From NCBI RefSeq assembly GCF_001677475.2, contig NZ_CP015229.1: a stretch of 64,000 bases of DNA; one strand, written 5' to 3'. This DNA comes from Escherichia coli (GTDB lineage: Bacteria; Pseudomonadota; Gammaproteobacteria; Enterobacterales; Enterobacteriaceae). A model generated the notes under the pieces. It was not told where the DNA came from and did not search any database. It saw only the letters and a list, made by a program, of their open reading frames with translations. Positions 9,184 to 25,850 of the stretch are shown here, piece after piece. A program made the translations under genes and the position numbers. Position 1 is the stretch's first letter. The number at the start of each line of letters is the position of its first letter.

Positions 9184-11178
9184 ATGAGTTTTGCAGCTAC
9201 AGATTATCCATCCGGCGCACTAACTGGATCGGGTACACATAACGTGACTTTGAGCGGCAGCGCAGTTCCTGATGGAATGTTACTGTTTGCAAGCTTAGGG
9301 GGTACAGAAACAGTAGGGGAACTATTTACTTATTCTATTAAATTAAAAACTCCTGACATCCTGAACCTGGGCTATGTTTCCCCCGCAGCCAACCTACAGC
9401 TCAAACCGATGGTGGGCAAAGATCTGTGCGTCAATATCGAATTGGATGGCGGCGGAAAACGTTACATCAGCGGGCTGGTGACGGCGGCACGCGTGGCTGG
9501 TCATCAAGGACGTTCGGTGGTGTATGAACTGCGGCTCGAACCGTGGTTAAAAATACTGACCCACACTAGTGACTACAAAGCGTTTCAAAATAAAAACGTG
9601 GTGGAGATCCTGGATGAGGTACTGGATGAGTACCCCTGGCCAGTGGAAAAACGACTGGTGGAAAATTATCCGACTCGCGCCTGGCAGGTGCAGTACGGTG
9701 AAACAGATTTCGATTTTATTCAGCGCCTGATGCAGGAGTGGGGTATCTACTGGTGGTTTGAGCACAGCGAGAACAGTCACACGTTAGTGCTGGCTGATGC
9801 CATTAATGTCCACAAGGCATGCGCAGATTCGCCGCTGGTGTGTTATTACCAGAAAGGGCTGAAACTGGACAAGGAGTTTATCCATACCATCACAGCAAAT
9901 GAAAGTCTGCGCAGCGGACAGTGGGTGCTGAATGATTTCGACTTTATGAAGCCGCGTTCACTGCTGAAGAGCACCGTGGCTAATCCGCGTGAAACCGGCC
10001 TTGCTGAATATGAGCACTACGAATGGCCGGGAGATTACTTCACAAAGAGTGAAGGTGAAATGCTGACACGCATTCGCATGGAAGAACAGCGTAGCCCCGG
10101 TAGTCGGGTACAGGGCAGCGGCAATATTCGTACCCTGATAACGGGTTTTACCTTCACCCTGGAAAACTATCCGACAGCCGAAGTGAACCGGGAATATCTG
10201 CTGGTACAGACCACGCTATTTATACAGGACAATGCGCAACACAGCGGCCAGGAGCAGCATTTCTCTTACTCAACCAGCTTTGAACTGCATCCCACCAGCG
10301 AAGTTTACCGCCCACAACGAACCCTGTGCAAACCCCACACTAAAGGCCCGCAGAGCGCAATCGTCACCGGCCCGGCAGGGCAGGAAATCTGGACAGATAA
10401 ATATGGACGGGTGAAAGTTCAGTTTGGCTGGGATCGTTACGGTAAGAATGACGAAAATAGTTCCTGCTGGGTCCGTGTCAGTTATCCGTGGGCGGGTAAA
10501 GGATTCGGTGGCATTCAGATCCCGCGCATTGGTCAGGAAGTACTGGTGGATTTCAAAAACGGTGATCCGGATTTACCGATAATTGTTGGGCGTACCTACA
10601 ACCAGGACACCATGCCACCGTGGGGACTACCGGGCGCAGCGACGCAAAGCGGATTTTACAGTCACACTATCGGCGGCGGCCCAACCAATGCCAACGCACT
10701 ACGTTTTGAGGATAAACCTGGCGGTGAAGAGGTCTGGCTACATGCCGAAAAAGATCAGCGGATTGAAGTAAATAATAATGAAAGCCACTGGGTGGGCAAT
10801 AATCGCCTTAAAGTCATTGATAAAACAGAAACAGCGATAATTGGTGAGGAACGTTCTCTTACAGTTCAGATGGATGATACCTCCCTTGCCGGACAAAACA
10901 AAACGATTCAGGCCGTACAGAATTTACGCCTTGCTGCGGGAGATTCCATAATTCTTAGTTGTGGGAACACTATCCTGCAAATGACCAGTGACGGAATATT
11001 TAATATAACCTGTAAGAATTTTAATATTACTGCAACAGAAAATGGAAAGATAAATACACAATCAGGTCAGCTTGATTTAAATATGAATAACAGGGCGGCA
11101 GATATACTTCCGCCTGGAACATCGGAAAAAACAGCCCTTCAATTGGCGATAGACGTCGCCTTCATGACTAAAAAATAA
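9184..11178 (+). CDS. vgrG: Type VI secretion spike protein VgrG
   Basis: 664 aa; N-terminal gp27-like and gp5-like OB/beta-helix sequence (e.g. [60 protein letters not shown]). Confidence 0.9.
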
Positions 11179-11228: not shown

Positions 11229-11681
11229 ATGACGGAGTATTATCTCAATGAAACTGTTGTAAGTTTTTCCGGGAATATTATTCAGGACAGTACTATTAAT
11301 ATGCTTCGCCTCAGCGATCCCGACGCTGCACTCATTATCAGCCGGGGCCAGATGCAGGAAGGAGACGAATTAGCCTCCCAGATTGAACAGCAAATGAAAA
11401 AACTGGAGAAACAGGTAAAGGATCTTCACTACACGCCCGTTCAGGTAACACGGGTGGGGATTAATGACGGTGAAGAAGGACTGGAAATACAGAGCCAGTT
11501 TCTCCGGGGTAACGAGCAGGTGTACCAGTGTCAGGTGGCATTTGTATTGCCGGGTGAGCGGGTCATGATGGCCTTCACCTACGCCCGAACCACACCGCTG
11601 ACCCCGGCAGATATGACGCGCTGGGCTGAAATTAAAAAGAATCTGCGCTTCAGGATGCGGCAGGAAGCCGGGACGAATTAA
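11229..11681 (+). CDS. DUF1795/Eag-family chaperone for prePAAR effectors
   Basis: 150-aa ORF between vgrG and the prePAAR Rhs gene; size and position typical of Eag/EagR chaperones; sequence-level family call not verified. Confidence 0.6.
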   Translation: MTEYYLNETVVSFSGNIIQDSTINMLRLSDPDAALIISRGQMQEGDELASQIEQQMKKLEKQVKDLHYTPVQVTRVGINDGEEGLEIQSQFLRGNEQVYQCQVAFVLPGERVMMAFTYARTTPLTPADMTRWAEIKKNLRFRMRQEAGTN

Positions 11682-11699: not shown

Positions 11700-14600
11700 A
11701 TGGAAGAGGCATTCTGGGCGGCAAGGCAGGGTGATGCCCTGCTGCATACGTCGTTTATGGCAGATGTGCTGGGGGCAGTTGTAGAGGTTGCCGCCACAGC
11801 CCTGGTGGATGTTCTGGTTGTCGGAACCATGGCGGCGCTGGGCGGAGTTGAAGTGGCAACGCTGGGCTGCTCAACCATTTTAGCGATCGGTATAGCAACA
11901 GCGGTATTTATGTCGTATCAGGGCTGGAATGACCGAATCAGTAGGGAAAGTGAGCAACTGGCGAACTGGCTTTTCCCGCCTCAGATTGAAGGTTACATCC
12001 TCACCGGCTCTGGCGACACATGGATCAACAGCAAACCTGCCGCGCGGGCCGCGGCGACTGCGGCATCGCGGCAGGACATTGAGGCGCAGGAGGCGCAGGC
12101 GAAGGCGGAACAGGAAGAAGCGCAGCGTCAGGAGGATGCCAGAACGTTCCTGGATGTGGCCGGGGAATATCTGGAAATGGCGGGGGCCATAGCCCTGGCG
12201 GTTAACCCGGTGACAGGGCCTGTGCTGATGTCCCGGGCGCTGCACGACCAGCTCAGTACGGAAGAAGGGCGTTCTGAAATGGTGGATGGCGTGACACATT
12301 TTGTGTCGGAACTATGGCAGCCCACCGTGGCCAGTGCGGCCCCGGGCTCCACCCCGACCCCTGACGATAAAATCGACTGCCATAAACATCCCTCCTCACT
12401 GACGCAGTTTCTCGCACAAAAAAAAGCCGCCTTTCTGGATGACCCCCTGGGAACGGCCCTTAACCTGCTGAGTCCGGGCGGTATGCTGGAAACCGCCTTT
12501 CAGGGAGTGAATGCGGTTATTGGCAGCATCAGTAATCTGTTCAAAGGCGATGATGAACCGCCCGCAGCGGAATATATCGCGGAAGGCGCGCGGGATGTGC
12601 GTATCAACAGCCAGCCGGCGGCACGCAGCGGGGCACGCTGCACCTGCGAGGCCAGGGTGGTGAATGAGCCGGGGAACGGGGCGTTTGTGTCACCGGATGT
12701 CCGCATTGGCGGTCCGTTACTGGTGGTCAGGGATATCAGAAGCGGCAGGTCGCAGATAACCCTGGTGGCAACCGTGGCGCTGATGTTTCTTCGCCCGGGC
12801 AAAATGCTTTCTAAAATCGCCTGTTTTGCTGCCAGTGTCGGGATGGGGGTGATGACGCAGAAGGCCATCAGTGCCCTTCCGCATCCGGTCAATGCCGCCA
12901 CCGGAGCCAAATATCTGGCCGATGACGATGATTTTGACTTCAGTCTGCCGGGCCACTTTCCGCTGGACTGGCAGCGCGTGTACAGCAGTCGTGACGACCG
13001 CACGGAAGGGATGTTCGGGCAGGGCTGGAGTGTAATGTATGAAGTCAGCCTCGAGCGCACGCCGGGTACTGCTGACGAAAACTGTATGACCTTTGTGTCG
13101 GGCATGGGACGACGTCTGGATATGGAGGCCGTGCTGCCGGGGAGCGGGTTTTACAGCCCCGGCGAAGGACTGGCAGTACGGCGGGGTGAGCAGGGGCACT
13201 GGCTTATCAGCAGCGATGACGGGCAGTTTTTTCTGTTTGAGGCCGACCCGCGTCACCCGCAGCGCCAGCGGCTGAAAATGCTGGGCGACCGCAACAGCAA
13301 CTGTCTGAATCTGTACTACGACGAGCTGGGGCGCATCACGCAAATCAGCGGTGAACAGCAGCGTCCGTGCATCCGTCTGCATTATGAACTGGCGGCGCAT
13401 CCCCGGCGGGTGACACAGATTTATCAGCATTTCCCTGAGATGGCTCCTTTACTGCTGCGTCGTTACCGCTATGACGAGGCCGGCGACCTGAACGGCGTGT
13501 ACGACAGCACGGGGCACCTGCTGCGCGAGTTTGCTTACGACGAAAACCACTGCATGACCCTGCACCGCCAGCCGGGCGGCGAAGGGTATTATTACCAGTG
13601 GGGCTGGTATGAAGGCCCGGATGACGCAGCGTGGCGGGTGACGGGGCACCACACGGACAGCGGTGAACAGTACCGGCTGGCGTGGAGCCTGGCGGCACGC
13701 AGGCTGTGCGTGACGGACGGGCTGGGGCGCACGCGTTATCATCAGTGGGACGCGCAAAATCAGGTGACGGCGTACCAGGACGAAGCCGGGCAGGTGACGA
13801 CGTTCCGCTGGAGCGACGAAGAACGGCTGTTACTGGGAATGACCGATGCGCAGGGCGGCAAATGGCGCTATGTGTATGACCGGCAGGGGCATATCACGGA
13901 GACGCACGACCCGCTGGGGCGGGTGGCACAGACACAGTGGCACCCGGTGTGGCACCAGCCGGAAACGGAGGTGGACGCGGCGGGGAACAGCTGGTGCTGT
14001 GAGTACGATGAACGCGGCAATCTTCTTGCGGTGACCGACCCGCTGCAGCAGAACACCCGGTATCAGTATGACCGCCACGGCCAGGTGGTGCAGATAACGG
14101 ATGCGCGCGGGGGGAATAAATACCTTCAGTGGAACGAAGACGGGCAGCTCATGCGGCACACGGACTGTTCCGGCTCGCAGACGGCCTGGTTCTACGACGA
14201 ACGCACGCGGCTGATACGGATGACAGACGCGCAGAGCCACAGCACGCGCTACGGGTATGACGACAGCGGCCACCTGACGGAGGTGATACTGGCGGACGGC
14301 CGCACGGTGAATTACCAGTCGGACGCGGCGGGCAGGCTGGTGAAGTACACCAGCCCGATGGGGAGGATAACGCGCTGGCAGCGGGACGGGCAGGGCCGGG
14401 TGCGCAGCCGGACAGACGCGACGGGGCGCAGGACGGCGTTCGGGTACGATGCCTACGGGCGTCTGGTCACGCTCACGAACGAGAACGGAGAAAGCTACCG
14501 GTTCCGCCATGACGTGCTGGACCGTCTGGCGGAGCAGATAAATCCGGACGGCTGCCGCCAGACGTACCGCTACAACGCGCTGAACGCGGTCACGGAAGTG

Positions 14601-16415
14601 GTGTTCACCGGGGACCGGGGCGGTGAAATCCGCCACCGGCTGGCACGTGATGCGGCGGGCCGGCTCACGGCAAAGGAGACAGCCGATGGCCATACGGAAT
14701 ACGTCCATGATGCGGCAGACCAGCTACTGGAAATCCGCCGCCGACGGTCGGATGCCGGGGAAACAGACGCACCGGAGATTATCCGTTTCAGTTACGACAG
14801 ACTGGGGCGGATGCTGACCGAGGAGACGGCGCAGGGCGTCCTGACCCATCAGTACGATGAACTCAGCAACCGGACAGCCACCACCTTTCCGGATGGCAGA
14901 ACGCAGCGTCATCTGTACTACGGCAGCGGCCATCTCCAGCAGATAAATCTGGACCGGGAGGTCATCAGCGAGTTCACACGTGACGCCCTGCACCGGGAAG
15001 TGCTCAGAAGTCAGGGGCGACTGAGCACGCGGCAGCTTTATGACCCCGCCGGGCGGCTGAAGCGCAGGGAGACATACAGCGGGATGCGCGGGGTGGTACC
15101 GGAGACGTTCACGGACCGGCAGTACAGCTACAGCGGCGAGGATGAATTGCTGAAGACGCGGCACAGCCGGCGGGGGGAAACGGATTACGTCTACGACCCC
15201 ACGGGGCGCATCACGGCGTGCCGCTCGGAGGATGAGGGGTATCTGGCGAGCTGGCAGTACGACGCGGCGGGAAACCTGCTGGGGAGGCGCGCGGGGGAAA
15301 GGGCCACGGCAGAAAACAGCGTGGTGCCGTTCAACCGGCTGATGTCTTACCGTGGTGTGCACTACCGTTATGACGAATTTGGCCGGACGGTGGAAAAGGA
15401 GGGCCGGAGCGGCACGCAGAGTTACCGTTATGATGCGGAACACCGGATGGTGGAAGTGACGACAGCGCGGGGGACATACCGGTATGTGTACGATGCGCTG
15501 GGGAGGCGGACGGAAAAACAGCACATCAGCCCTGACGGTAAAGCGTACAACCGGACGACATTTTTATGGGACGGAATGCGGCTGGCGCAGGAGAGCAGGC
15601 CGGAGGGAATAAGCAGCCTGTATATCTACAGCGACCCGGGGAGTTATGAACCGCTGGCGCGGGTGGATAAGGCGGGCAAAGAGGGCCCGAACCGGATACT
15701 GTATTTTCACACGGATGTGAACGGTGCGCCGGAAGAGATGACGGACAGTGACGGGAAAATCGTGTGGGAGACGGGGTATCAGGTCTGGGGTAACACGATA
15801 CAGGAGAAGGACCACGGCGGGGTGGAGCAGAACCTGCGCTACCAGGGACAGTACCTCGACAGGGAAACGGGGCTGCACTACAATCTGCACAGGTACTATG
15901 ATCCGGATGTCGGGCGGTTCATGGTAACGGACCCGATAGGGCTGGCGGGGGGGCTGAATCTTTATACTTATGCGCCTAATCCAGTAAGCTGGATAGATCC
16001 CCTTGGTTTAAGTTGTTACTTTAATTCTAAGTCTAATCGCTGGCATGACAGGCAGACAGGTCGTTTTACAAAACGACCAACAGATCCTTCAGAATTAGTT
16101 CATAATGGCCGAATTGACAAGGCTGATATAGATGTTTGGGCTAGTCAAGGAGGGATTCCAAATACATGGGGGCATGATCCGTTAAAATTCCCCAGTGGTG
16201 GTTTTAAATATGATGCTGGTAATTATACTGTTCATGGTCATGGTGCTAATCCATCTGCGGCAGCTAAATTTCCTAATTCTAATGCGGCAAATGGGCCGAC
16301 AGCGAGCATGAAAAATACTTCAACAGGTGAAGTGTTTAGAACCGATGGAACTTGGGGGACATTCAAATCAGATGCCAATGGTGCTCATATCCCCCTTGAT
16401 GGCTCACCTTATTGA
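11700..16415 (+). CDS. Rhs-family T6SS effector with N-terminal prePAAR motif, transmembrane segments, PAAR region, YD-repeat shell and variable C-terminal toxin domain
   Basis: 1571 aa; AARQGDALLH matches the prePAAR AARxxDxxxH motif; hydrophobic stretches follow; two ...PAAR... segments; numerous YD repeats; DPIGL...DPLGLS demarcation then low-GC 134-aa tail. Confidence 0.9.
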   Translation: MEEAFWAARQGDALLHTSFMADVLGAVVEVAATALVDVLVVGTMAALGGVEVATLGCSTILAIGIATAVFMSYQGWNDRISRESEQLANWLFPPQIEGYILTGSGDTWINSKPAARAAATAASRQDIEAQEAQAKAEQEEAQRQEDARTFLDVAGEYLEMAGAIALAVNPVTGPVLMSRALHDQLSTEEGRSEMVDGVTHFVSELWQPTVASAAPGSTPTPDDKIDCHKHPSSLTQFLAQKKAAFLDDPLGTALNLLSPGGMLETAFQGVNAVIGSISNLFKGDDEPPAAEYIAEGARDVRINSQPAARSGARCTCEARVVNEPGNGAFVSPDVRIGGPLLVVRDIRSGRSQITLVATVALMFLRPGKMLSKIACFAASVGMGVMTQKAISALPHPVNAATGAKYLADDDDFDFSLPGHFPLDWQRVYSSRDDRTEGMFGQGWSVMYEVSLERTPGTADENCMTFVSGMGRRLDMEAVLPGSGFYSPGEGLAVRRGEQGHWLISSDDGQFFLFEADPRHPQRQRLKMLGDRNSNCLNLYYDELGRITQISGEQQRPCIRLHYELAAHPRRVTQIYQHFPEMAPLLLRRYRYDEAGDLNGVYDSTGHLLREFAYDENHCMTLHRQPGGEGYYYQWGWYEGPDDAAWRVTGHHTDSGEQYRLAWSLAARRLCVTDGLGRTRYHQWDAQNQVTAYQDEAGQVTTFRWSDEERLLLGMTDAQGGKWRYVYDRQGHITETHDPLGRVAQTQWHPVWHQPETEVDAAGNSWCCEYDERGNLLAVTDPLQQNTRYQYDRHGQVVQITDARGGNKYLQWNEDGQLMRHTDCSGSQTAWFYDERTRLIRMTDAQSHSTRYGYDDSGHLTEVILADGRTVNYQSDAAGRLVKYTSPMGRITRWQRDGQGRVRSRTDATGRRTAFGYDAYGRLVTLTNENGESYRFRHDVLDRLAEQINPDGCRQTYRYNALNAVTEVVFTGDRGGEIRHRLARDAAGRLTAKETADGHTEYVHDAADQLLEIRRRRSDAGETDAPEIIRFSYDRLGRMLTEETAQGVLTHQYDELSNRTATTFPDGRTQRHLYYGSGHLQQINLDREVISEFTRDALHREVLRSQGRLSTRQLYDPAGRLKRRETYSGMRGVVPETFTDRQYSYSGEDELLKTRHSRRGETDYVYDPTGRITACRSEDEGYLASWQYDAAGNLLGRRAGERATAENSVVPFNRLMSYRGVHYRYDEFGRTVEKEGRSGTQSYRYDAEHRMVEVTTARGTYRYVYDALGRRTEKQHISPDGKAYNRTTFLWDGMRLAQESRPEGISSLYIYSDPGSYEPLARVDKAGKEGPNRILYFHTDVNGAPEEMTDSDGKIVWETGYQVWGNTIQEKDHGGVEQNLRYQGQYLDRETGLHYNLHRYYDPDVGRFMVTDPIGLAGGLNLYTYAPNPVSWIDPLGLSCYFNSKSNRWHDRQTGRFTKRPTDPSELVHNGRIDKADIDVWASQGGIPNTWGHDPLKFPSGGFKYDAGNYTVHGHGANPSAAAKFPNSNAANGPTASMKNTSTGEVFRTDGTWGTFKSDANGAHIPLDGSPY

Positions 16416-16425
16416 GATTATTAAT

Positions 16426-16755
16426 ATGAATTTGCAAGAAATAAAAAATAAAGTCTTATCTCTTCCTACAATAATGAATTTAGCGGATGAGCTATTAATA
16501 ATTGACGAGTTGATGACTATTGATGTTAATGATTTGATTGAAAATCAAGATATCTTTAAATCTATTATAGATGCATTAGAATTATCACATATTGATTCTG
16601 GGTTTATGGAGTTAACAGAAGAAAATGAGAGTTCATTTATAAACTTCTACAAATGGCTTAATAAAACAAATAATAAATTTAACTTGGGAATAAATGCTAA
16701 CACTATAGATAGTTTTAGTTTGACTGTTGAAGATGTGAAAAAAATGATGTTATAG
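16426..16755 (+). CDS. Candidate Rhs immunity protein
   Basis: Track ORF 16327..16755 overlaps the rhs 3' end; first ATG after the rhs stop is 16426 (109 aa); AT-rich like the Rhs C-terminal domain; position immediately after toxin domain. Confidence 0.5.
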   Translation: MNLQEIKNKVLSLPTIMNLADELLIIDELMTIDVNDLIENQDIFKSIIDALELSHIDSGFMELTEENESSFINFYKWLNKTNNKFNLGINANTIDSFSLTVEDVKKMML

Positions 16756-16766
16756 ATAAAATATAA

Positions 16767-16800
16767 AGCCGGGAATATGATCTCCCGGCTTTTTTATTAT
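16767..16800. terminator. Bidirectional rho-independent terminator between immunity gene and symE-like gene
   Basis: AGCCGGGA-loop-TCCCGGCT hairpin followed by TTTTTTATTATT. Confidence 0.6.
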
Positions 16801-17130
16801 TCAACTCTCGTTCAGTACACTAAACATCCCGTTCCGCATCCCCTTAACCACCTGTTTAACCTGATAAAGCTCCTCCCGCAGTTCCTGCATCTCGTCACTG
16901 TCAGCGATGATGGTCAGGCACCCATCCGAGATCTTTACAGTCACGCCTGTCCCGGTATCAAATCCCGCCTCTTTCAGCCAGTCGCCCTTAAGGTGCAGGC
17001 TGGGGTGTTGTGAATAATACCGGGCTATACCGGTTGTGCGATCTTCGTGGCGGGCTCTGACATAGCCGACTTTATAGCGGCGCTGTGTTTTGGAAATGGT
17101 GACTTCTGGCGTAATATCGTGTTCAGCCAT
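16801..17130 (-). CDS. SymE-family toxin homolog (AbrB-fold, type I toxin family), copy 1
   Basis: 109 aa; LHLKGDWLKEAGFDTGTGVTVKISDGCLTI resembles the K-12 SymE core (LKGQWLEAAGFATGT...EGCIVLT) as I recall it; GAGGTAG RBS. Confidence 0.8.
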   Translation of the reverse strand: MAEHDITPEVTISKTQRRYKVGYVRARHEDRTTGIARYYSQHPSLHLKGDWLKEAGFDTGTGVTVKISDGCLTIIADSDEMQELREELYQVKQVVKGMRNGMFSVLNES

Positions 17131-17195
17131 GATTAACTACCTCGATTAGTTGCTTGTGGTGAGCGGCTGTTACAGGCGGCAACCTGTAGCAGTCG
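17124..17195 (+). ncRNA. Predicted cis-antisense sRNA overlapping the symE-like start (SymR-like antitoxin RNA candidate), copy 1
   Basis: Plus-strand sigma70-like promoter inside the symE 5' coding region (TTGGAA, 16-nt spacer, TAATAT at about 17090-17117) and a downstream hairpin (about 17166-17192) whose non-Watson-Crick positions are G-U wobbles only in the plus-strand transcript. Confidence 0.35.
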
Positions 17196-17202
17196 CGTTA
17201 AA

Positions 17203-17432
17203 TATCAACGCATTACCTTCATTACCTGCTTCATCTTCTCCTGCGTGATCGCCATATCCAGAATGCGGCAGATCACTTCCTGATCGTCTGCTTTAAGCTC
17301 ATCAACCTGCTTACACAGTTCCTTTAACCGCTTGTTTTTAATATCGAAAACAGGAGCGGTGGAACCTTCTTCACCCAACAGCAGGTGGTCAATACTGACT
17401 TCCAGAAGCTGGGCCAGCTTAATGATGTAATC
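17203..17432 (-). pseudogene. 3' remnant of an XRE-family HTH regulator gene truncated by the H-repeat element
   Basis: Minus-strand frame reads ...DYIIKLAQLLEVSIDHLLLGEEGSTAPVFDIKNKRLKELCKQVDELKADDQEVICRILDMAITQEKMKQVMKVMR-stop with no start codon; frame closes just inside the IS end. Confidence 0.45.
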
Positions 17433-18722
17433 AGGGAAAGATCACGTAATGCTGCTTTTTTGTACTAAACAATTCGCATTTTATGTTTAAAAATTGAGAT
17501 ATTCCTCATTACATAAAGCTGTTTTTTATTGCTTATACATGATCAAATACTCCTTACATAATTAAGGAGAACAAAATGGAACTTAAAAAATTGATGGAAC
17601 ATATTTCTATTATCCCCGATTACAGACAAGCCTGGAAAGTGGAACATAAATTATCGGATATTCTACTGTTGACTATTTGTGCCGTTATTTCGGGTGCAGA
17701 AGGCTGGGAAGATATAGAGGATTTTGGGGAAACACATCTCGATTTTTTGAAGCAATATGGTGATTTTGATAATGGTATTCCTGTTCACGATACCATTGCC
17801 AGAGTTGTATCCTGTATCAGTCCTGCAAAATTTCACGAGTGCTTTATTAACTGGATGCGTGACTGCCATTCTTCAGATGATAAAGACGTCATCGCAATTG
17901 ATGGAAAAACGCTCCGGCATTCTTATGACAAGAGTCGCCGCAGGGGAGCGATTCATGTCATTAGTGCGTTCTCAACAATGCACAGTCTGGTCATCGGACA
18001 GATCAGGACGGATGAGAAATCAAATGAAATTACAGCTATCCCTGAACTTCTTAACATGCTGGATATTAAAGGAAAAATCATCACAACTGATGCGATGGGT
18101 TGCCAGAAAGATATTGCAGAGAAGATACAAAAACAGGGAGGTGATTATTTATTCGCTGTAAAAGGAAACCAGGGGCGGCTAAATAAAGCCTTTGAGGAAA
18201 AATTCCCACTGAAAGAATTAAATAATCCAGAGCATGACAGTTACGCAATTAGTGAAAAGAGTCACGGCAGAGAAGAAATCCGTCTTCACATTGTTTGCGA
18301 TGTCCCTGATGAACTTATTGATTTCACGTTTGAATGGAAAGGACTGAAGAAATTATGCGTGGCAGTCTCCTTTCGGTCAATAATAGCAGAACAAAAGAAA
18401 GAGCCAGAAATGACGGTCAGATATTATATCAGTTCTGCTGATTTAACCGCAGAGAAGTTCGCCACAGCAATCCGAAACCACTGGCACGTGGAGAATAAGC
18501 TGCACTGGCGTCTGGACGTGGTAATGAATGAAGACGACTGCAAAATAAGAAGAGGAAACGCCGCAGAATTATTTTCAGGGATACGGCACATCGCTATTAA
18601 TATTTTAACGAATGATAAGGTATTCAAGGCAGGGTTAAGACGTAAGATGCGAAAAGCAGCCATGGACAGAAACTATCTCGCGTCAGTCCTTGCGGGGAGC
18701 GGGCTTTCGTAATCTTGCCCTG
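17432..18722 (+). mobile_element. ISAs1-family (H-repeat type) insertion sequence, intact copy
   Basis: About 1.29 kb; imperfect terminal inverted repeats CAGGGAAAGATCAC / (rc) CAGGGCAAGATTAC; single 378-aa transposase ORF. Confidence 0.75.
17576..18712 (+). CDS. ISAs1-family transposase (H-repeat-associated protein)
   Basis: 378 aa; sequence strongly resembles E. coli H-rpt proteins (YdcC/YhhI type) from memory. Confidence 0.85.
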
Positions 18723-18736
18723 ACCATCTGACGGAT

Positions 18737-18922
18737 GTGGCTGGTAATCCATCAAACATTGCTAATAGATTTTCAAAGGTCATTGATGGAAAAGATGTTC
18801 AGTTTGTTACTAAGGACTCTTTATTTGCCGGGCCGAGCGGTAAGTTTGCGCAATTTGAATCTACTTGGCAGGTTTTGGATAATGGTTCATTACGATTAAC
18901 AACAGTGATCCCGAAATTATGA
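18737..18922 (+). CDS. Possible orphan toxin C-terminal fragment downstream of the IS
   Basis: 61-codon GTG-initiated ORF whose frame opens exactly at the IS right end; AT-rich; ATGA overlap with next ORF. Confidence 0.3.
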   Translation: MAGNPSNIANRFSKVIDGKDVQFVTKDSLFAGPSGKFAQFESTWQVLDNGSLRLTTVIPKL

Positions 18923-19239
18923 TTAGAGAATTTGAAGAGAAAATGTCTGATTTGTTTGGTGTTGATGCAACATCATTCGATCCTGAATATGCGCAGTGGA
19001 CATATTTATTTAAGAAGGGTTTATTTTCACTTGAATTTGTTTATGCTCTGGATAAAACAATATCTACGGCTTTATATTATAATGAAAATTTATTGTCTTT
19101 TTATTTTGCCAATGGTCTGGAACACCTTAGCATAGAAGACAATAAAATTCATGGTGTTATTGTTAAAGGTAATACAACCAGAAAACTAGAGATAGATCCA
19201 TTAAATTTAATTATAAAATGGGAAGATTCATTAATATAA
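18919..19239 (+). CDS. Possible orphan immunity protein
   Basis: 106 aa, AT-rich, translationally coupled to the upstream fragment; same position relative to terminator/symE as the rhs immunity gene. Confidence 0.35.
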   Translation: MIREFEEKMSDLFGVDATSFDPEYAQWTYLFKKGLFSLEFVYALDKTISTALYYNENLLSFYFANGLEHLSIEDNKIHGVIVKGNTTRKLEIDPLNLIIKWEDSLI

Positions 19240-19280
19240 TGATTGCAATATTCCATTTCAATAAGAAATAACCAATAAAA

Positions 19281-19320
19281 AGCCGGAGTGCTATTAAATC
19301 TTCCGGCTTTTTTATTATTT
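19281..19320. terminator. Bidirectional rho-independent terminator (copy 2)
   Basis: AGCCGGAG-loop-CTTCCGGCT hairpin followed by TTTTTTATTATTT. Confidence 0.55.
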
Positions 19321-19648
19321 AATTCTCGTTCAGCACACTAAACATCCCGTTCCGCATCCCCTTAACCACCTGTTTAACCTGATAAAGTTCCTTCCTCAGT
19401 TCCTGCACCTCGTCGCGCTCCGCAATCAGGATCAGGCACCCCTCCGAGATTTTCACAGTCACGCCCGTCCCGGTATCAAATCCCGCCTCAGCGAGCCAGT
19501 CGCCTTTAAGGTGCAGGCTGGGGTGCCGTGAATAATACGTGGTCATGCCTGTTTTACTGTTCTGATGGCGGGCGCTGACATAGCCCACCTGATACTGGCG
19601 CTGTGTTTTGGAAATGGCGACTTCTGGCGTAATATCGTGTTCAGCCAT
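19319..19648 (-). CDS. SymE-family toxin homolog, copy 2
   Basis: 109 aa, about 80 percent identical to copy 1 by eye; same RBS and flanks. Confidence 0.8.
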   Translation of the reverse strand: MAEHDITPEVAISKTQRQYQVGYVSARHQNSKTGMTTYYSRHPSLHLKGDWLAEAGFDTGTGVTVKISEGCLILIAERDEVQELRKELYQVKQVVKGMRNGMFSVLNEN

Positions 19649-19716
19649 GATTAACTACCTCTGTTAGTTGCTTGTGGTGAGCAGATTGTCAGTGTTGGTA
19701 GCACTGGCAATCTGCG
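19642..19716 (+). ncRNA. Predicted cis-antisense sRNA overlapping symE-like start, copy 2
   Basis: Same promoter-like hexamers (about 19608-19635) and a 13-bp-arm hairpin (about 19682-19714) with a single T-G position that pairs only in the plus-strand RNA. Confidence 0.35.
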
Positions 19717-19889
19717 TTAAAAATCAGTGTATTACTCTCTTTTCCATGGAAAGATCACGTAACGCTGCTTTTTTGTACTAAATAATTCGCATTTTATGTT
19801 TAAAAATTGAGATATTCCTCATTACCTAAAGCTGTTTTTTTATTGCTTATACATGATCAAATACTCCTTACATAATTAAGGAGAACAAA

Positions 19890-20372
19890 ATGGAACTTAA
19901 AAAATTGATGGAACATATTTCTATTATCCCCGATTACAGACAAGCCTGGAAAGTGGAACATAAATTATCGGATATTCTACTGTTGACTATTTGTGCCGTT
20001 ATTTCGGGTGCAGAAGGCTGGGAAGATATAGAGGATTTTGGGGAAACACATCTCGATTTTTTGAAGCAATGTGGTGATTTTGATAATGGTATTCCTGTTC
20101 ACGATACCATTGCCAGAGTTGTATCCTGTATCAGTCCTGAAAAATTTCATGAGTGCTTTATTAACTGGATGCTTGACTGCCATTCTTCAGATGATAAAGA
20201 CGTCATTGCAATTGATGGAAAAACGCTCCGGTACTCTTATGACAAGAGTCGTCGCAAGGGAGCGATTCACGTTATTAGTGTGTTCTCAATAATGCACAGT
20301 CAGATTCCTTGGAAGATCAAGACGAATAAAAAAACAATGAGATTACAGCTGTTTCTGAATTTCTTAACATAA
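19890..20372 (+). pseudogene. Degraded second ISAs1/H-repeat transposase gene (N-terminal 130 aa conserved, then divergent and truncated)
   Basis: 160-aa ORF identical in its first part to the intact copy, then diverging into ...[31 protein letters not shown]; element upstream sequence conserved from about 19745. Confidence 0.7.
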
Positions 20373-20513
20373 TGGGTATTAAAGGAAAAATAATTGCACC
20401 GATCCAATGTGATACCAGAAAGACATCGCTAAGAAGATAGCTATAGACAATTATTACCCTCCGTCAGCCCTTGTTAAGCGAGGAGAGACGTAATCTGTCC
20501 AGTCCCCTAATGC

Positions 20514-21611
20514 TTATAAAGCCCATCGATTTCGCCCACTTTCTTTCGCCCGGTATAACGCAGCGTCGGCATCTGAAATAATTTGTTCAGCCGTTTTTGC
20601 GGGAGCAGAACAGGTAATCCCCTGACTAACCGTAACGAATGCATTAACAGCAGATGCCTGATGTGGGATAGCTGCCAGTTTAAGTTCTTGCTTCACTCTG
20701 GCTGCTACCGTCTCTGCTTCCGGCAATGTTGCATTAAAAAGTATGATGGCAAACTCTTCGCCACCATAACGGACAACAACATCCTCCGACTGGCGAGTTG
20801 AACGCTGTAGAGCGTCGGCAACTTGTATTAGACAACGATCCCCAGCAGGATGCCCGTAAGTGTCGTTGTAACGTTTAAAAAAATCGACATCCAGCATAAT
20901 AAGAGCAAATGACCCGCCGTTATCTATCGCGTCGTGTAAGATACTGTTCATTGCACGTCGGTTTGCTATCCCAGTTAAAGGATCACGATGTGCTAATGCA
21001 TCAAGGCGATTAATTAACTGGTTGTTATAACTGTTTTGTACCCATGCTTCTTCAAACCAACGTAACAAAATGAGTCGCCCACCATATAGCGCCAGTGAAA
21101 AAATACACCATACAACAGCAAAATGAATATTGATCTGTTGATTAAGCATAAGACTCGCTATTGGAGTGGTGAACCATAAGGGAATGACAAATGCGAGCAA
21201 TGATGGGGTATGGAAATAAAGTGCGACAACGCCACTAAGCATTAATAATACACATAGTGGATAAGCAAACTGCAGCGTCCAGTACGCAATAAAGTGATAA
21301 CTACACCATGACCATAGCAGGCTCAGGGCAACTAATAGCACCTGGATAGGTAATGTTTTTTGCCGAGGGATGAGTAGTAAACCACTGCAAATCAGCAGAA
21401 TACCCGTTGCAGATATATCAATAGAATGTATAAGGCTTTTTTCATTTAACCAGGGTGGAGTAAGGTCATTAAACAGAACACGGCGCAGCAAAATTATCAA
21501 TGCAAAACTGACATTGATAAAAGCAAACCATGGCAAACTAATCGTCATGCCGCGAATAACCATATCGCGGCGGGTTTTCCATGAGTGATGCGTTTTTCTT
21601 CGTTCAGCCAT
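20514..21611 (-). CDS. Membrane-anchored diguanylate cyclase (GGDEF domain)
   Basis: 365 aa; N-terminal hydrophobic helices; RYGGEEF active-site motif. Confidence 0.8.
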   Translation of the reverse strand: MAERRKTHHSWKTRRDMVIRGMTISLPWFAFINVSFALIILLRRVLFNDLTPPWLNEKSLIHSIDISATGILLICSGLLLIPRQKTLPIQVLLVALSLLWSWCSYHFIAYWTLQFAYPLCVLLMLSGVVALYFHTPSLLAFVIPLWFTTPIASLMLNQQINIHFAVVWCIFSLALYGGRLILLRWFEEAWVQNSYNNQLINRLDALAHRDPLTGIANRRAMNSILHDAIDNGGSFALIMLDVDFFKRYNDTYGHPAGDRCLIQVADALQRSTRQSEDVVVRYGGEEFAIILFNATLPEAETVAARVKQELKLAAIPHQASAVNAFVTVSQGITCSAPAKTAEQIISDADAALYRAKESGRNRWAL

Positions 21612-21657
21612 TTTTTAACCAAAAAAGGGCAGGATACCTGCCCGGTATGCAGTAAAT

Positions 21658-23634
21658 TTATGGTGTCACTATATTGAACCAAAATTCAAAATTATCCATA
21701 TAACCTAACAGCTCGTTGAGTTTTTCCGCATTGCCAGTAATTTTGACATCTCCTTTGGCCGTGGCTTCTTTCAGCGTCTCTTCTTTCAGTACAATTTTGT
21801 TCAATACATCACGAGACAGAGTGATAGTGGCATCAGCATCCGAAGCCTCTACACCAGCGGTATGATTGAGAACACCATTTTCAAGCTCCACTTTATAGGT
21901 GCCGCCATCTTCACCAAAATCGAAATTCAACACGGTTTTGGCATCTGCCGCTTTCTCACCATTAATATGGACGGCAAGATAATCAAAGAACATCTCCGGC
22001 GTCATCGCACGCACGGTGTCTGGGCTGGCAGTATTTGGTGTTGGTAATTTTTGTACGCCATTACGCAATTCCTGTGCGCCAGTGAGATAGAAATTACGCC
22101 ACGGCCCAGATTCAGCCTGATAGCCTAACTGCTCAAGCGCATCAGCTTCCAGATCTCTCGCTGCCTGGTTGTTTGGATCGGCAAACACCACCTTACTAAC
22201 AACTTGGGCAACCCAGCGGAAATTACCCTGGTCATAATCCTGTTTGGCTTTCTGTAAAATGGTATCAGCACCGCCCATATACTCGACGAATTTTTTTGCG
22301 CCTTCTTCTGGCGGCAGTTCATCAAGCGTCGCGGGGTTACCATCAAACCAGCCGAGATAAAGCACGTAAGTTGCTTTCACGTCATGACTTACCGAACCGT
22401 AATAGCCGCGATTCGCCCAGGTGTTAGCCAGTGAAGAGGGCAGTTTAAAGTTTGCGGCAATTTCATCACGGGTCTTCCCTTGATTAGCCATGCGCAGAGT
22501 TTGATCATTGATGTAACGATACAAATCACGCTGGCTTTTAAGCAGTTTGACCACGTTATCGTTGCCCCAGGTTGGCCAGTGATGTTGAGCGAGAATAATC
22601 TCGGCTTTATCACCCCACAAATTGAGAGCTTCATTAATATATTTTGACCACGGCAGCGGTTGGCGAATTTTAGCCCCACGCAGCGAATAGGTGTTATGAA
22701 GGGTGTGCGTGACATCTTCAGCGGTTTCGATCAGTTTCTTTTCTTCAATAAACCACAGCATTTCAGAAGGCGCTTCAGAACCTGGCGCCATCAGGAAATC
22801 ATAAGTCAACCCGTCAATAGTTTCTTTTTGTCCGGTTTTGGTGATGTAGTTAGTAGGAGCAATCAACGTGACTGTTCCTGCTGAAGTAGTCGTTCCCAGT
22901 CCAGCCCCCACCTGGCCTTTAACATCAGGTTTCAATAAGTTGCCATACATATAACTGGCTCGTCGGCTCATAACATTGCCAGCCATGATGTTTTCGGAAA
23001 CGGCTTCCTCCAAAAATCCGGCTGGCGCATAGATTTTAACTTTGCCTGATTTAACGTCAGCTTCATCAATTACGCCACGAACACCACCGTAGTGATCGAC
23101 ATGACTGTGTGTATAGATAACCGCCACTACCGGTTTTTTGCCGCGATTTTTGTAATAGAGATCCATACCCACTTTGGCTGTTTCTGCTGAAACAAGGGGA
23201 TCAACGACGGTAATACCCTCTTTGCCTTCAATGATGGTCATATTTGATAGATCGAGATTGCGAATCTGATAGACACCTTCAGTTACTTCGAATAACCCGC
23301 TGATATTTATCAGTTGCGCCTGACGCCATAAACTCGGATTCACCGTATCAGGGGCTTTATCGCCTTCTTTGATAAAAGCGTATTGTTGTGGATCCCAGAT
23401 AACATTCCCTTGTTCGCCCTTAATCACGTCTTGAGGAATAGGGGCAATAAAACCTTTATGGGCATCAGTAAAGTCAGTGTTATCGGCAAACGGCAACTGG
23501 TTGTAGAGTAAATTGTTTGCTTGTTGCGTGGCTGCGGTGGCGTCTTTAGGAGCTTCCGCCGCGAGGAGAGGTAAAGAACTGGTGGTGAATAATCCCGTTA
23601 TTAGCAGACTTTTAACGATATGATTAAGCTGCAT
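21658..23634 (-). CDS. Secreted alkyl/aryl-sulfatase-like metallo-beta-lactamase-fold enzyme (SdsA1/YjcS type)
   Basis: 658 aa; signal peptide; THSHVDHYGG metallo-beta-lactamase motif; overall resemblance to alkyl sulfatases (from memory). Confidence 0.75.
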   Translation of the reverse strand: MQLNHIVKSLLITGLFTTSSLPLLAAEAPKDATAATQQANNLLYNQLPFADNTDFTDAHKGFIAPIPQDVIKGEQGNVIWDPQQYAFIKEGDKAPDTVNPSLWRQAQLINISGLFEVTEGVYQIRNLDLSNMTIIEGKEGITVVDPLVSAETAKVGMDLYYKNRGKKPVVAVIYTHSHVDHYGGVRGVIDEADVKSGKVKIYAPAGFLEEAVSENIMAGNVMSRRASYMYGNLLKPDVKGQVGAGLGTTTSAGTVTLIAPTNYITKTGQKETIDGLTYDFLMAPGSEAPSEMLWFIEEKKLIETAEDVTHTLHNTYSLRGAKIRQPLPWSKYINEALNLWGDKAEIILAQHHWPTWGNDNVVKLLKSQRDLYRYINDQTLRMANQGKTRDEIAANFKLPSSLANTWANRGYYGSVSHDVKATYVLYLGWFDGNPATLDELPPEEGAKKFVEYMGGADTILQKAKQDYDQGNFRWVAQVVSKVVFADPNNQAARDLEADALEQLGYQAESGPWRNFYLTGAQELRNGVQKLPTPNTASPDTVRAMTPEMFFDYLAVHINGEKAADAKTVLNFDFGEDGGTYKVELENGVLNHTAGVEASDADATITLSRDVLNKIVLKEETLKEATAKGDVKITGNAEKLNELLGYMDNFEFWFNIVTP

Positions 23635-23939
23635 CTTAAGCGTCTCCAGAATGGATTTTTATTGGAGGTAATTACGGATGAAAATTTTTAGTGAGGGCAA
23701 GAATAACTATAATGGGCGTTAACAAATTGGCAAGCCGGGAACTTGATGTTTTCTTAATGGCATGTTGGCGAAGAATATATTCTGCAAGTTAACGTTTTCA
23801 TTGGCGCTTTATTTAAAAGTGTGTAGTACAAATATGTACAATTTCAAGTAGGCATTATTGCCGTAAAAACGCATTACCGGACACACGACATTCACAACGT
23901 GTGTTAATTTTACTGACATCTTTCAAAAGGAGCACAATC

Positions 23940-24167
23940 ATGCCGCACATAGACATTAAATGTTTTCCGCGTGAACTGGACGAACAACAAAAAGCAGCAC
24001 TTGCTGCAGATATTACCGACGTTATTATTCGCCATCTGAACAGTAAAGATAGCTCGATAAGCATTTCTCTACAGCAGATTCAACCAGAATCTTGGCAAGC
24101 TATCTGGGATGCCGAAATCGAGCCCCAAATGGAGGCTTTGATAAAGAAACCCGGTTACAGCATGTAA
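23940..24167 (+). CDS. pptA: Tautomerase PptA
   Basis: [33 protein letters not shown]... start at internal Met of track ORF 23901..24167. Confidence 0.8.
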
Positions 24168-24170
24168 TGC

Positions 24171-24740
24171 TTAACCTGCCGTAACACGCTTGCCGCTGGT
24201 AACAAATGTGCCAGCACCTAAATGATGCAACGTATTGAGTTTATCATCATCAAACTGCCAGCGGCCTTCGACAAATACCCGTGCGTCTGCCGCTGCTGAT
24301 ACTACCTCGCCAAACAGAGTGTCGTATTTTTCTTGCGCAGAAGTCGCAGGTAGCAGGCGACACTCCATCCACGCCAGACATTTTTCCTCGACCAGCGGCA
24401 AACCAAGCACCGGACCTTTCACAACTGGAATACCATAGCAATTAAACTTATCTTCATCACGCCCCGACACACTTCCCACCGCCCACGTCCAGTTAGTTGC
24501 TGCAACACCCGGGATAACGATGCCAAACTTACCATTACGTTCAATCAACTCCCTGGTCCATGTCGATTTATCTACCACAATCGCCACGCGTGGCGGTTCA
24601 AACTCCACCGGCATCGACCAGGCTGCTGCCATAATGTTACGCCGCTGGGATTGCTCATCGAAACTGGTGATCAAGACAGTAGGTCCATGATTTAACAGAC
24701 GGCTGGCATGGTGTAATTCGACGGGAATGAATTGGCTCAC
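24171..24740 (-). CDS. yddH: Flavin reductase-like protein YddH
   Basis: 189-aa ORF; matches E. coli YddH from memory; synteny. Confidence 0.75.
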   Translation of the reverse strand: MSQFIPVELHHASRLLNHGPTVLITSFDEQSQRRNIMAAAWSMPVEFEPPRVAIVVDKSTWTRELIERNGKFGIVIPGVAATNWTWAVGSVSGRDEDKFNCYGIPVVKGPVLGLPLVEEKCLAWMECRLLPATSAQEKYDTLFGEVVSAAADARVFVEGRWQFDDDKLNTLHHLGAGTFVTSGKRVTAG

Positions 24741-24914
24741 GATAACGCCTCGCTATGAAGGGTGTTTTAAAAGCGTAGCTCGTAACGCAATAAGTAACGA
24801 AATTAACGGGATTGGCGATTTGCGAACGTGATGCATGTCCGCGATCGCACAAAATAGCCGGTGCGGCGTCTATTCCAGGTTATAAGTTGAGAAAACCACT
24901 AAGGGAAACGCCTG

Positions 24915-25760
24915 ATGACGCCCATTCTGAATCATTATTTTGCCCGTATTAACTGGTCGGGAGCTGCTGCGGCCAATATTGATACGCTGCGTGCATTGCA
25001 CCTGAAACACAATTACACCATTCCGTTTGAAAATCTCGACGTTTTGCTGCCGAGGGAAATACAGCTTGATGATCAATCGCTGGAAGAGAAACTGGTGATA
25101 GCCCGTCGTGGCGGTTACTGTTTTGAGCAGAATGGCGTGTTTGAGCGGGTGTTACGCGAGCTGGGGTTTAACGTTCGCAGCTTGTTAGGGCGCGTAGTGT
25201 TATCAAATCCGACAGCATTACCGCCGCGCACCCATCGTTTGCTGTTGGTGGAACTGGAAGGGGAAAAATGGATTGCTGATGTCGGTTTCGGTGGGCAGAC
25301 GCTAACCGCGCCGATTCGTTTAGTTTCCGATCTCGTGCAGACCACGCCACACGGAGAGTATCGGTTGTTGCAGGAGGGTGATGATTGGGTGTTGCAGTTT
25401 AATCATCATCAGCATTGGCAGTCGATGTACCGTTTTGATCTCTGCGAGCAGCAACAAAGCGATTATGTGATGGGCAATTTCTGGTCGGCGCACTGGCCGC
25501 AGTCGCATTTTCGCCATCATTTGCTGATGTGCCGCCATTTGCCGGACGGTGGCAAGCTGACACTGACCAATTTTCATTTTACCCATTATGAAAATGGGCA
25601 CGCGGTGGAGCAGCGAAATCTACCGGATGTGGCGTCGTTATATGCTGTGATGCAAGAACAGTTTGGTCTGGGCGTAGATGATGCGAAACATGGCTTTACT
25701 GTGGATGAGTTAGCGCTGGTGATGGCGGCGTTTGATACGCACCCGGAGGCGGGAAAATAA
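24915..25760 (+). CDS. nhoA: Arylamine N-acetyltransferase NhoA
   Basis: 281 aa; catalytic Cys context RGGYCFEQN; synteny. Confidence 0.85.
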   Translation: MTPILNHYFARINWSGAAAANIDTLRALHLKHNYTIPFENLDVLLPREIQLDDQSLEEKLVIARRGGYCFEQNGVFERVLRELGFNVRSLLGRVVLSNPTALPPRTHRLLLVELEGEKWIADVGFGGQTLTAPIRLVSDLVQTTPHGEYRLLQEGDDWVLQFNHHQHWQSMYRFDLCEQQQSDYVMGNFWSAHWPQSHFRHHLLMCRHLPDGGKLTLTNFHFTHYENGHAVEQRNLPDVASLYAVMQEQFGLGVDDAKHGFTVDELALVMAAFDTHPEAGK

Positions 25761-25769
25761 TTTATGTCA

Positions 25770-25850
25770 GGTTGCCGGATGTGGCGTAAACGCCTTATCC
25801 GGCATACATTAGCCCGGTTGTAGACCTGATAAGCGAAGCGCATCAGGCAA
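25770..25850. repeat. REP/BIME palindromic repeats
   Basis: GCCGGATGTGGCGTAAACGCCTTATCCGGC and TGTAGACCTGATAAGCGAAGCGCATCAGGCA units. Confidence 0.6.

Follow-up and report, generated by a model that had tools for sequence, protein, structure and literature searches.

The window examined here is a 64-kb stretch of Escherichia coli DNA (contig NZ_CP015229.1), in which two genes of the SymE toxin family, symE-A and symE-B, lie at the distal end of a locus for an Rhs polymorphic toxin. Its layout was drawn from a map of open reading frames (ORFs), a repeat search and a pairwise alignment of the two modules that contain these genes. On the plus strand, a type VI secretion system (T6SS) cluster and then vgrG (9184–11178) are followed by a DcrB/EagR-like gene (11229–11681) and by a full-length Rhs effector gene (11700–16415; 1571 aa). 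The conserved core of the Rhs protein, whose end is homologous to Rhs genes of 16 genera, stops near residue 1438 (about nucleotide 16013); the last part of the gene (about 16014–16415) encodes a polymorphic C-terminal toxin tip, CT1, and is succeeded by imm1 (16426–16755, plus strand), a putative immunity gene of 109 aa for CT1. This order, in which vgrG and a gene for a DcrB/EagR-type chaperone precede a full Rhs gene and the core end is followed by a tip and an immunity gene, identifies the locus as one for an Rhs polymorphic toxin; the corresponding genes of E. coli loci with orthologs are annotated as vgrG, DcrB-related and 'RHS repeat-associated core domain-containing protein'. After imm1 come symE-A (16801–17130, minus strand), the 3' remnant of a gene for a Cro/cI-type helix-turn-helix (cHTH) regulator (17205–17431, minus strand), an intact copy (copy A; 17432–18722) of ISEc1, an H-repeat insertion sequence (IS) of the ISAs1 family, the remnant of a second toxin tip, CT2' (18725–18922, plus strand), the putative immunity gene imm2 (18919–19239, plus strand, 106 aa), symE-B (19319–19648, minus strand) and the first 696 bp of another ISEc1 (copy B; 19745–20439). 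Beyond the second IS copy lie a GGDEF gene, an alkyl sulfatase gene, pptA, yddH, nhoA and the narZ operon. Comparison of the window with itself returned a repeat pair of about 300 nt (84% identity) and about 0.7 kb of repeated IS sequence (92.5%); chance cannot account for such matches. We consider it likely that this is the end of a T6SS-linked Rhs locus with two stacked cassettes, each closed by a SymE/SymR-type module whose symE gene is the right boundary, and that the ISEc1 copies are secondary.

Firstly, we characterised the two symE genes, both of which are intact and encode 109 aa. The product of symE-A matches the SymE_toxin domain of the MazE/AbrB-like class (Pfam PF08845, E 8.7e-22), and the motif LKGxWLxxAGFxTGxxVxVK aligns with SymE of E. 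coli K-12. The NCBIfam equivalog model of SymE (NF010128) scores 52 bits for symE-A (E 5.5e-14) and 58 bits for symE-B (E 8e-16) against a cutoff of 132, which does not support orthology to K-12 SymE; since symE-A is also only 37% identical to K-12 SymE, the two genes are best assigned to a paralogous subfamily, which occurs in Escherichia, Shigella, Salmonella, Citrobacter, Erwinia, Pectobacterium, Yersinia and Xenorhabdus. The initial annotation had described two SymE-like genes of about 80% identity, each after a bidirectional terminator and beside an ISAs1/H-repeat element, and this description holds, coordinates included: symE-A and symE-B are 81% identical as proteins and 85.8% as DNA, with a synonymous divergence (dS) of 0.38, a nonsynonymous divergence (dN) of 0.10 and a dN/dS ratio of 0.26. 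All invariant and nearly invariant residues of the subfamily, taken from an alignment of 24 sequences, are kept in both. Decay of the two ORFs, which the initial annotation had raised as a possible objection, is ruled out by their full length, the kept residues and the dN/dS of 0.26; elsewhere, decay is the rule. Among the copies compared, the one closest to symE-A is the ortholog of E. coli ETEC1738 (93% nucleotide identity, dN/dS 0.12), and comparisons of symE-B with other copies give dN/dS values of 0.19–0.30. These values indicate that symE-A and symE-B diverged long ago as paralogs and have been under purifying selection; they are neither recent duplicates nor decayed genes. In symE copies of other E. 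coli whose ribosome-binding site has been removed by an IS (the ETEC1738, 2009C-3133 and GF131 type), pairwise dN/dS is 0.55–1.46 on very few substitutions, against 0.12–0.35 in other comparisons, which hints at relaxed selection after silencing in these IS-stripped copies.

The site of the two modules is also known from other strains. At the orthologous site of ETEC1738, the order is vgrG, DcrB-related gene, Rhs, immunity gene, SymE family toxin, ydcC (ISAs1), yddH and nhoA, that is, a single module. In E. coli 2014C-3338, the array ends in SymE, a truncated ISAs1, GGDEF, sulfatase and pptA, which is the order of copy B and includes an ortholog of symE-B together with its truncated ISAs1 and GGDEF neighbours. 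The single-module and the copy-B-type arrangement thus occupy the same chromosomal site.

A simple recent segmental duplication of terminator, symE and IS within the locus, the other objection raised in the initial annotation, would account for the first 500 bp of the two IS copies, which are 95–100% identical, and for the near identity of the terminators, the symE ends and the SymR promoter region of the two modules. It is contradicted by the dS of 0.38 and by the 14% of bases at which the symE copies differ. In addition, the closest relatives of the two modules are not the same, symE-A pointing to ETEC1738 (93%), the 3' end of symE-B with its cassette to Escherichia marmotae (94%) and the junction of copy B to 2014C-3338; the IS–symE junctions are 205 bp apart, and the cHTH remnant is found in module A only. 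After their first 500 bp, the IS copies fall to about 77% identity, and the symE genes stand at 86%. The similarity of the 5' parts of the IS copies is therefore recent and separate from the history of the symE genes; gene conversion, or copying of the IS in recent times, explains it better. We regard such a duplication as extremely unlikely. The initial annotation had also proposed a duplicated module of terminator, SymE gene, helix-turn-helix remnant and IS; the terminator, the SymE gene and the IS are present at both copies, and the remnant is confined to copy A.

Secondly, we analysed the strand opposite the symE start codons for an antisense RNA comparable to SymR of K-12. The Rfam symR model matches, under its gathering score, at 17125–17199 on the plus strand for copy A (38.5 bits, E 8e-5 to 3e-6) and at 19643–19718 on the plus strand for copy B (48.3 bits, E 3.6e-7). 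As in K-12, the predicted start of both RNAs lies 3 nt inside the symE coding sequence, and both would cover the start codon, the Shine-Dalgarno sequence and the 5' untranslated region (UTR). The two-hairpin fold of K-12 SymR is recovered in both (z −4.5 for A and −6.3 for B). In hairpin 2, 8 of 14 base pairs are changed on both sides between A and B yet still pair, and pairing is perfect in both copies; these pairs were compared directly from the folds, counted from the base, and a covariance model was dropped, there being three distinct hairpin-2 variants only. A cis-antisense RNA with SymR-like structure over the start codon and the 5' UTR is thus predicted at both copies. A candidate promoter for SymR-A, TTGGAA (17090–17095) and TAATAT (17112–17117) with a 16-nt spacer, lies inside the coding sequence of symE-A, and the likely SymR promoter stretch together with the first 50 nt of symE is nearly invariant across Escherichia, Citrobacter and Yersinia. 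Just past the SymR hairpin of copy B, at the same relative position as the LexA box of K-12, is a LexA-box-like motif, CTG-N10-CAG with an A/T-rich spacer (19712–19727). The whole window contains five such motifs. None of them lies at copy A, since the cHTH gene has its stop codon there, 6 bp after SymR.

Thirdly, we compared the toxin/immunity cassettes that precede the symE genes. The two are unrelated to one another (CT1/imm1 and CT2'/imm2), as had been noted from the sequence at the outset. Cassette 1 was found in one of 5,426 complete E. coli genomes, GF131, where it occupies another Rhs locus, between ybfA and ybgA (rhsC), with a 330-bp hypothetical counterpart of imm1 behind the Rhs gene, and has symE and an ISAs1 element behind it, as in the window. 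Cassette 2 (18713–19300) had no match among the same genomes, even in distant mode, and was located in E. marmotae through a protein search, as an orphan Rhs cassette that is 94% identical over 719 bp. This match continues through the immunity gene and the terminator into symE, of which it takes in the last 122 bp; beyond it, E. marmotae enters the next Rhs core fragment. The counterpart of CT2' in E. marmotae is the end of an 83-aa ORF (95% identity), which is preceded there by a fragment of an Rhs core end, and imm2 is 86–88% identical to the ORF that follows CT2 in the E. marmotae arrays. CT2' and imm2 (18725–19239) are accordingly a downstream orphan toxin-tip/immunity pair from another Rhs gene; CT2' is the 3' remnant of that tip, truncated at its 5' side by the right end of the IS, and the core fragment and the front of the tip have been lost to the IS from the window. 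Each cassette and its symE gene share a bidirectional intrinsic terminator at the 3' side of symE. Terminator A, common to imm1 and symE-A (16765–16792), was called on both strands, with fold energies of −17.8 and −17.5 kcal/mol (shuffle z −4.8 and −4.4); terminator B, common to imm2 and symE-B (19277–19312), is conserved with it and has a fold energy of −14.7 kcal/mol on each strand (shuffle z −4.4 and −3.1). Both are G+C-rich hairpins with U-runs on both strands. CT1 has no Pfam match, imm1 has no NCBIfam match, imm2 has neither, and the ORF of the CT2 remnant (18737–18922) has no NCBIfam match; CT1/imm1 and CT2/imm2 (16014–16755 and 18725–19239) are uncharacterised toxin/immunity pairs. The core genes that flank the locus (24000–34000 of the window) are at most 96.7% identical to those of any of the 5,426 complete E. 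coli genomes, which places the source, an Escherichia, somewhat beyond the E. coli diversity that these genomes sample. Since cassette 2 is also missing from these genomes and 94% identical in E. marmotae, the window probably comes from a divergent or cryptic Escherichia lineage that has swapped Rhs cassettes between species.

Whether symE follows the cassettes or the IS was examined across genomes. One genome per species (GTDB representatives) was scanned with peptide patterns derived from the SymE alignment alone, which returned 34 loci in at least 16 genera, and their neighbours were mapped by tblastn with the Rhs, VgrG, EagR and transposase proteins of the window and with the HTH, primase-helicase and XerC proteins of E. 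coli PEC395. In 32 of the 34 loci, an Rhs core end lies convergent at 587–1214 bp from the primary SymE match, a distance that corresponds to one toxin tip plus one immunity gene, and the remaining two reach the contig end within 0.8–1.3 kb. When all SymE segments of related loci are counted, 60 of 69 have a convergent Rhs core end within 1.6 kb (median 771 bp), and ISAs1 lies within 1 kb of five, all of them in Escherichia. A genome contains a handful of Rhs genes, so the linkage of SymE to Rhs is far beyond chance. The symE gene follows the cassettes, not the H-repeat. The initial annotation had suggested that these genes travel with the H-repeat element or with the orphan cassettes, of which the second part is borne out and the first is not. 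It had further called the context unusual; on the contrary, the boundary of an Rhs (and CdiA) cassette is the normal home of this subfamily, as in these 32 loci and as already drawn in Fig. 7A of PMC1891008.

Most of these segments are incomplete. The N-terminus is missing from 54 of the 69, which are truncated at their 5' side, and in 31 of these the next core fragment lies no more than 250 bp away. By a strict criterion, four of 52 segments in the species-representative loci are intact and 48 are truncated, frameshifted or without N-terminus; the classifier required a start with MAE and may over-call decay, and stop-to-stop translations were therefore checked by eye, which confirmed that most copies do lack the N-terminus and the start codon and that fusion junctions recur. 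Two loci of E. marmotae and one of the Enterobacteriaceae metagenome-assembled genome (MAG) UBA5654 are long orphan arrays whose units end in a 3' stub of symE fused to the next core fragment. In seven of nine E. marmotae stubs, codon 68–70 of symE is joined 79–86 bp from core residue 1285; the array of UBA5654 has at least eight alternating units with varied junctions. A Salmonella locus flanked by saf fimbrial genes has the order vgrG, DcrB, Rhs, imm and SymE.

The alternative in which symE is cargo of ISEc1, or is mobilised by it, draws on the frequent position of symE immediately beside an ISAs1 element in Escherichia and on GF131, where cassette 1, symE and IS are together at another Rhs locus. 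The ends of the element were mapped. The left end, CAGGGAAAGATC, was defined through two copies in PEC395 with unrelated flanks. Copy A, on the plus strand, is an intact element of 1291 bp with a 378-aa transposase (17576–18712; NCBIfam ISAs1 NF033564, E 1e-124), and its terminal inverted repeats, CAGGGAAAGATCACG and CAGGGCAAGATTACG, are imperfect, agreeing at 12 of 15 positions. Copy B, on the same strand, retains the left end only, and its transposase ORF is cut at 160 aa (NF033564, E 4.7e-41). Both copies thus encode an ISAs1-type transposase, and the ends with their inverted repeats are defined. No target-site duplication is present at copy A, whose flanks, ..GATGTAAT and ACCATCTG.., differ; such a difference would fit either a deletion next to the element or rearrangement between IS copies at a later time. 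The mapped ends exclude symE, which is therefore outside the IS. From the left end of the IS (17432 and 19745 in the window; about 9363, about 9362 and, in GF131, about 8837 in copies from other loci), the distance to the symE start codon is 302 bp at copy A, 97 bp at copy B and in 2014C-3338, and 6 bp in ETEC1738, 2009C-3133 and GF131. The three junctions cut different parts, namely the cHTH gene (302 bp), the promoter (97 bp) and the Shine-Dalgarno sequence with SymR (6 bp), and are either independent insertions or nested adjacent deletions. A preference of the element for insertion upstream of symE is an alternative account of this spacing. In PEC395, ISEc1 copies have flanks that lack symE, and the Rhs-linked SymE segments outside Escherichia all lack an ISAs1 within 1 kb. 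Transport of symE by ISEc1 is on this evidence very unlikely.

The cHTH remnant at copy A corresponds to about residues 58–132 of a 132-aa protein, by alignment to an intact gene of PEC395, which lies upstream of symE on the same strand and matches phage repressor families. The homology ends exactly at the IS end, and the helix-turn-helix motif itself is missing; the two-gene, type II-like cHTH–symE operon of Kawano et al. 2007, in which an intact regulator gene normally stands ahead of symE, is thus not present in the window, the motif and the promoter having been removed at copy A by ISEc1. At copy B, no trace of cHTH was found.

The intact cHTH gene of PEC395 belongs to a larger unit. At the ybfA–ybgA locus of this strain (13887–26332 of the compared stretch), two tandem units of about 6.5 kb each consist of cHTH, a primase-helicase with a CHC2 zinc finger (910 aa), an XerC-type recombinase, a hypothetical gene, an Rhs core-end fragment, a toxin tip, an immunity gene and symE, the last symE abutting the core gene ybgA. 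Their backbones are 95.5% identical over 5.9 kb, from terminator and symE through the core-end fragment, and the toxin tip and immunity gene alone differ; the units therefore hold variable cargo bracketed by the Rhs core end and symE. The unit was found in 65 of the 5,426 E. coli genomes, at a median of four places, and its primase-helicase and XerC-type proteins resemble phage primases and integrases; the whole looks like a possible cassette-carrying integrative element. This opens the alternative that symE and cHTH are one end of a self-mobilising integrative unit that delivers cassettes, and that the window contains the decayed footprints of two deliveries. Besides the tandem units and their distribution, it is favoured by relatives of the unit primase-helicase and/or XerC recombinase that adjoin SymE in loci of Citrobacter, Erwinia and Enterobacter, by the association with Prim-Hel (primase-helicase) remarked by Kawano et al. 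2007 (PMC1891008), and by the 3' end of cHTH that persists at copy A. On the other side, the window has no primase or recombinase gene, such genes occur in only 3 of the 34 cross-species loci, copy B has a LexA-like site instead of a cHTH trace, attachment sites and circular forms are not part of the support for such a unit, and unequal homologous recombination alone could yield tandem units. We judge delivery by such a unit to be unlikely. The same low likelihood applies to its fuller form, in which terminator and symE would be the functional right arm of Rhs cassette exchange, the complete unit would mobilise itself with SymE/SymR as an addiction or maintenance device, and the window would preserve two delivery footprints; if this were true, recombination between a left arm, the Rhs core end, and a right arm, symE, would bring about the capture, exchange and stacking of cassettes.

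Under the reading that we favour, two stacked cassettes with symE as the right boundary of each, the distal end of the T6SS-linked locus (vgrG, DcrB/EagR-like gene, Rhs) would comprise two cassettes, the active one carried by the full Rhs gene and the other a displaced orphan, and both would be terminated by their own SymE/SymR-type modules. Symmetrically to the Rhs core end, which would be the left boundary, symE with its bidirectional terminator would be a conserved right boundary of Rhs (and CdiA) cassettes in Enterobacterales, and as such would move and stack with the cassettes. By homology to SymE/SymR of K-12, SymE would be a DNA-binding protein of the MazE/AbrB fold that is toxic when over-made, and a constitutive SymR-like RNA that covers the start codon, the ribosome-binding site and the 5' UTR would block its translation. 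Control of transcription would differ between the copies: copy A would originally have been the second gene of a cHTH–symE operon, and copy B has in its place a LexA-box-like site, which resembles that of K-12. The arrival of ISEc1 copy A would be secondary, removing the N-terminus and promoter of cHTH at its left end and the front of CT2 at its right end; copy B, 97 bp upstream of symE-B, would likewise have come later and has lost half of its own sequence. Because the native promoters have been cut or crowded, expression of both symE genes is probably low at present. The sequence analysis shows the anatomy, the paralogy, the purifying selection, the structures of the antisense RNAs, the boundaries of the IS and, across genomes, the linkage to Rhs cassettes. 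From the comparison with K-12 and the arrangement of the locus, we infer the toxicity, the repression by SymR, the present level of expression and the role of symE for the Rhs locus. The services that symE might render are insulation, a homology arm, addiction, or nothing at all; we would prefer insulation of the operons by convergent termination together with a homology arm for cassette exchange, and possibly addiction.

Several observations weigh against this reading. The gathering score of the Rfam symR family is 61, above the scores of both SymR-like RNAs; the candidate SymR promoter, read from the sequence, fits the consensus at 8 of 12 positions and is below the scan threshold; and the LexA-like box is a single motif match. 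A consensus scan of the 300 bp and 97 bp available upstream of the two symE genes revealed no sigma-70-like promoter, so that both genes may be silent, and expression of symE-A, symE-B and the SymR-like RNAs is a prediction only. The signal of purifying selection averages the whole history of the paralogs and need not hold since the IS insertions. In the survey across genomes, the sample covered this SymE subfamily only and used the Rhs of the window as tblastn probe, CdiA and other polymorphic-toxin contexts being unscored, and the mostly truncated SymE copies in other Rhs arrays fit passive hitch-hiking equally well.

In a rival reading, the symE genes are functionless, silent relics, a conserved flank left by Rhs cassette recombination and heading for decay. 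It gains from the 48 incomplete segments out of 52, from the loss or crowding of the upstream promoter regions at both window copies, and from the common E. coli loci in which the IS is 6 bp from the start codon, the Shine-Dalgarno sequence and SymR are gone and dN/dS is raised, on few sites. It is opposed by the window copies themselves, with their full length, conserved residues and low dN/dS, by the compensatory changes that maintain both SymR-like hairpins, and by an inversely expressed sense/antisense pair that was measured at a homologous gene of Salmonella (PMC2330248). We find it rather unlikely that the two genes are relics of this kind.

The locus is ordinary: its toxin-antitoxin family is known, the neighbourhood of that family was published in 2007, and the IS beside it is of a known family long tied to Rhs elements. 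Kawano, Aravind and Storz 2007 (PMC1891008, Fig. 7A) drew SymE neighbourhoods with cHTH, Prim-Hel, transposons, haemagglutinin, RHS and an optional second SymE, and suggested that SymE copies without a regulator gene are under antisense RNA control. The same neighbours recur here and in related loci (cHTH remnant, Rhs, transposase, second SymE, and the primase-helicase of PEC395). In contrast, those drawings were representative cartoons, in which symE as a regular 3' boundary of cassettes and its core-fused stubs were not described, and the present paralogs were not tested there. The symE/symR locus of K-12, between hsdS and mcrB, shares the SymE_toxin domain, an antisense start 3 nt inside the coding sequence, the two hairpins and, with copy B, the position of the LexA-like site; it differs in its protein (37% identity), in its home, which is a restriction-modification island and not the end of an Rhs cassette, and in that copy A of the window derives from a cHTH–symE operon. 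RNA cleavage, which had been put forward at first as the assay for toxicity, would no longer be the appropriate one, since K-12 SymE is now viewed as a DNA-binding, nucleoid-condensing protein and not as an RNase, in the passage of PMC11894785 that cites Thompson et al. 2022. The RefSeq name for K-12 SymE agrees with this view.

In the open-access literature on Rhs, contact-dependent inhibition (CDI) and orphan cassettes that was searched, including Poole et al. 2011 (PMC3150448), SymE is not mentioned. The displaced pair of the window, which follows a full Rhs gene, resembles the orphan arrays formed by C-terminal displacement, in which displaced tip/immunity pairs keep a piece of the core as left homology; as far as we found, a right flank of symE plus terminator is not part of the published model. 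Such arrays were reportedly described by Jackson et al. in 2009, and the H-repeat elements of E. coli Rhs loci are said to go back to the Hill laboratory in the 1990s. ISEc1 conforms to the H-repeat (H-rpt) in its 1291-bp length, CAGGG-type ends, 378-aa transposase and position between Rhs cassettes, and the K-12 names ydcC and ybfD are used for orthologous copies. The element itself is nothing new; what can be seen here is its insertion into a cHTH gene and a toxin tip, and its nested distances from symE across strains.

For Enterobacterales, a rule emerges by which almost every Rhs toxin/immunity cassette has a member of this SymE subfamily at its 3' end, often as a core-fused stub. In annotation, SymE stubs can accordingly serve as cassette boundaries, and the Rfam families isrA and Ssr1 can be recognised as antisense to SymE genes. 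It also raises the question of why a DNA-binding toxin with an antisense RNA stays at cassette ends, where it might aid the movement or the retention of cassettes.

The isrA family (from Salmonella) and, as a partial match, Ssr1 (from Shigella) represent the strand antisense to SymE genes at the ends of Rhs cassettes. In the window, isrA matches on the plus strand inside the coding sequence of symE-A (16931–17059, 115 bits against a gathering score of 51) and opposite symE-B (19449–19577, 104 bits, above the gathering score); together with Ssr1, the plus-strand matches extend over 16520–17100 and 19112–19618. In the saf-linked locus of Salmonella, isrA (9099–9227, minus strand) is likewise antisense to the SymE gene after Rhs-imm, with 141 bits. 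IsrA is a 423-nt RNA antisense to STM0294.1n, the two being inversely expressed, and STM0294.1n was described in 2008 as a protein of no clear function (PMC2330248). The link to SymE is made neither in that paper nor in the Rfam descriptions of the isrA and Ssr1 families. The likeness to the window lies in isrA (RF01385) scoring above its gathering score antisense to both symE genes; the difference is that IsrA, at 423 nt, has the length to span essentially the whole gene, and that the counterpart in the window is predicted from the Rfam match only. At the saf-linked locus, Rfam did not detect the short SymR-like element at E ≤ 0.001.

SymE has also surfaced in genome papers, in passing statements that place it after a T6SS effector of Erwinia, beside orphan hcp genes of Pantoea, inside a CDI array of Proteus and between hecA and rhs fragments of Dickeya. 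Finally, a SymE variant of 97 aa stands beside ybgA in GF131 (about 11040–11075), in Escherichia sp. E1V33 and as the last symE of PEC395 (about 18861–18900). Its 5' UTR runs into the last 34 nt of the right end of ISEc1, CTTGCGGGGAGCGGGCTTTCGTAATCTTGCCCTG, and the join falls in a stretch of similarity between the SymR hairpin region and the IS end, which suggests that the junction arose from a deletion between short similar sequences.

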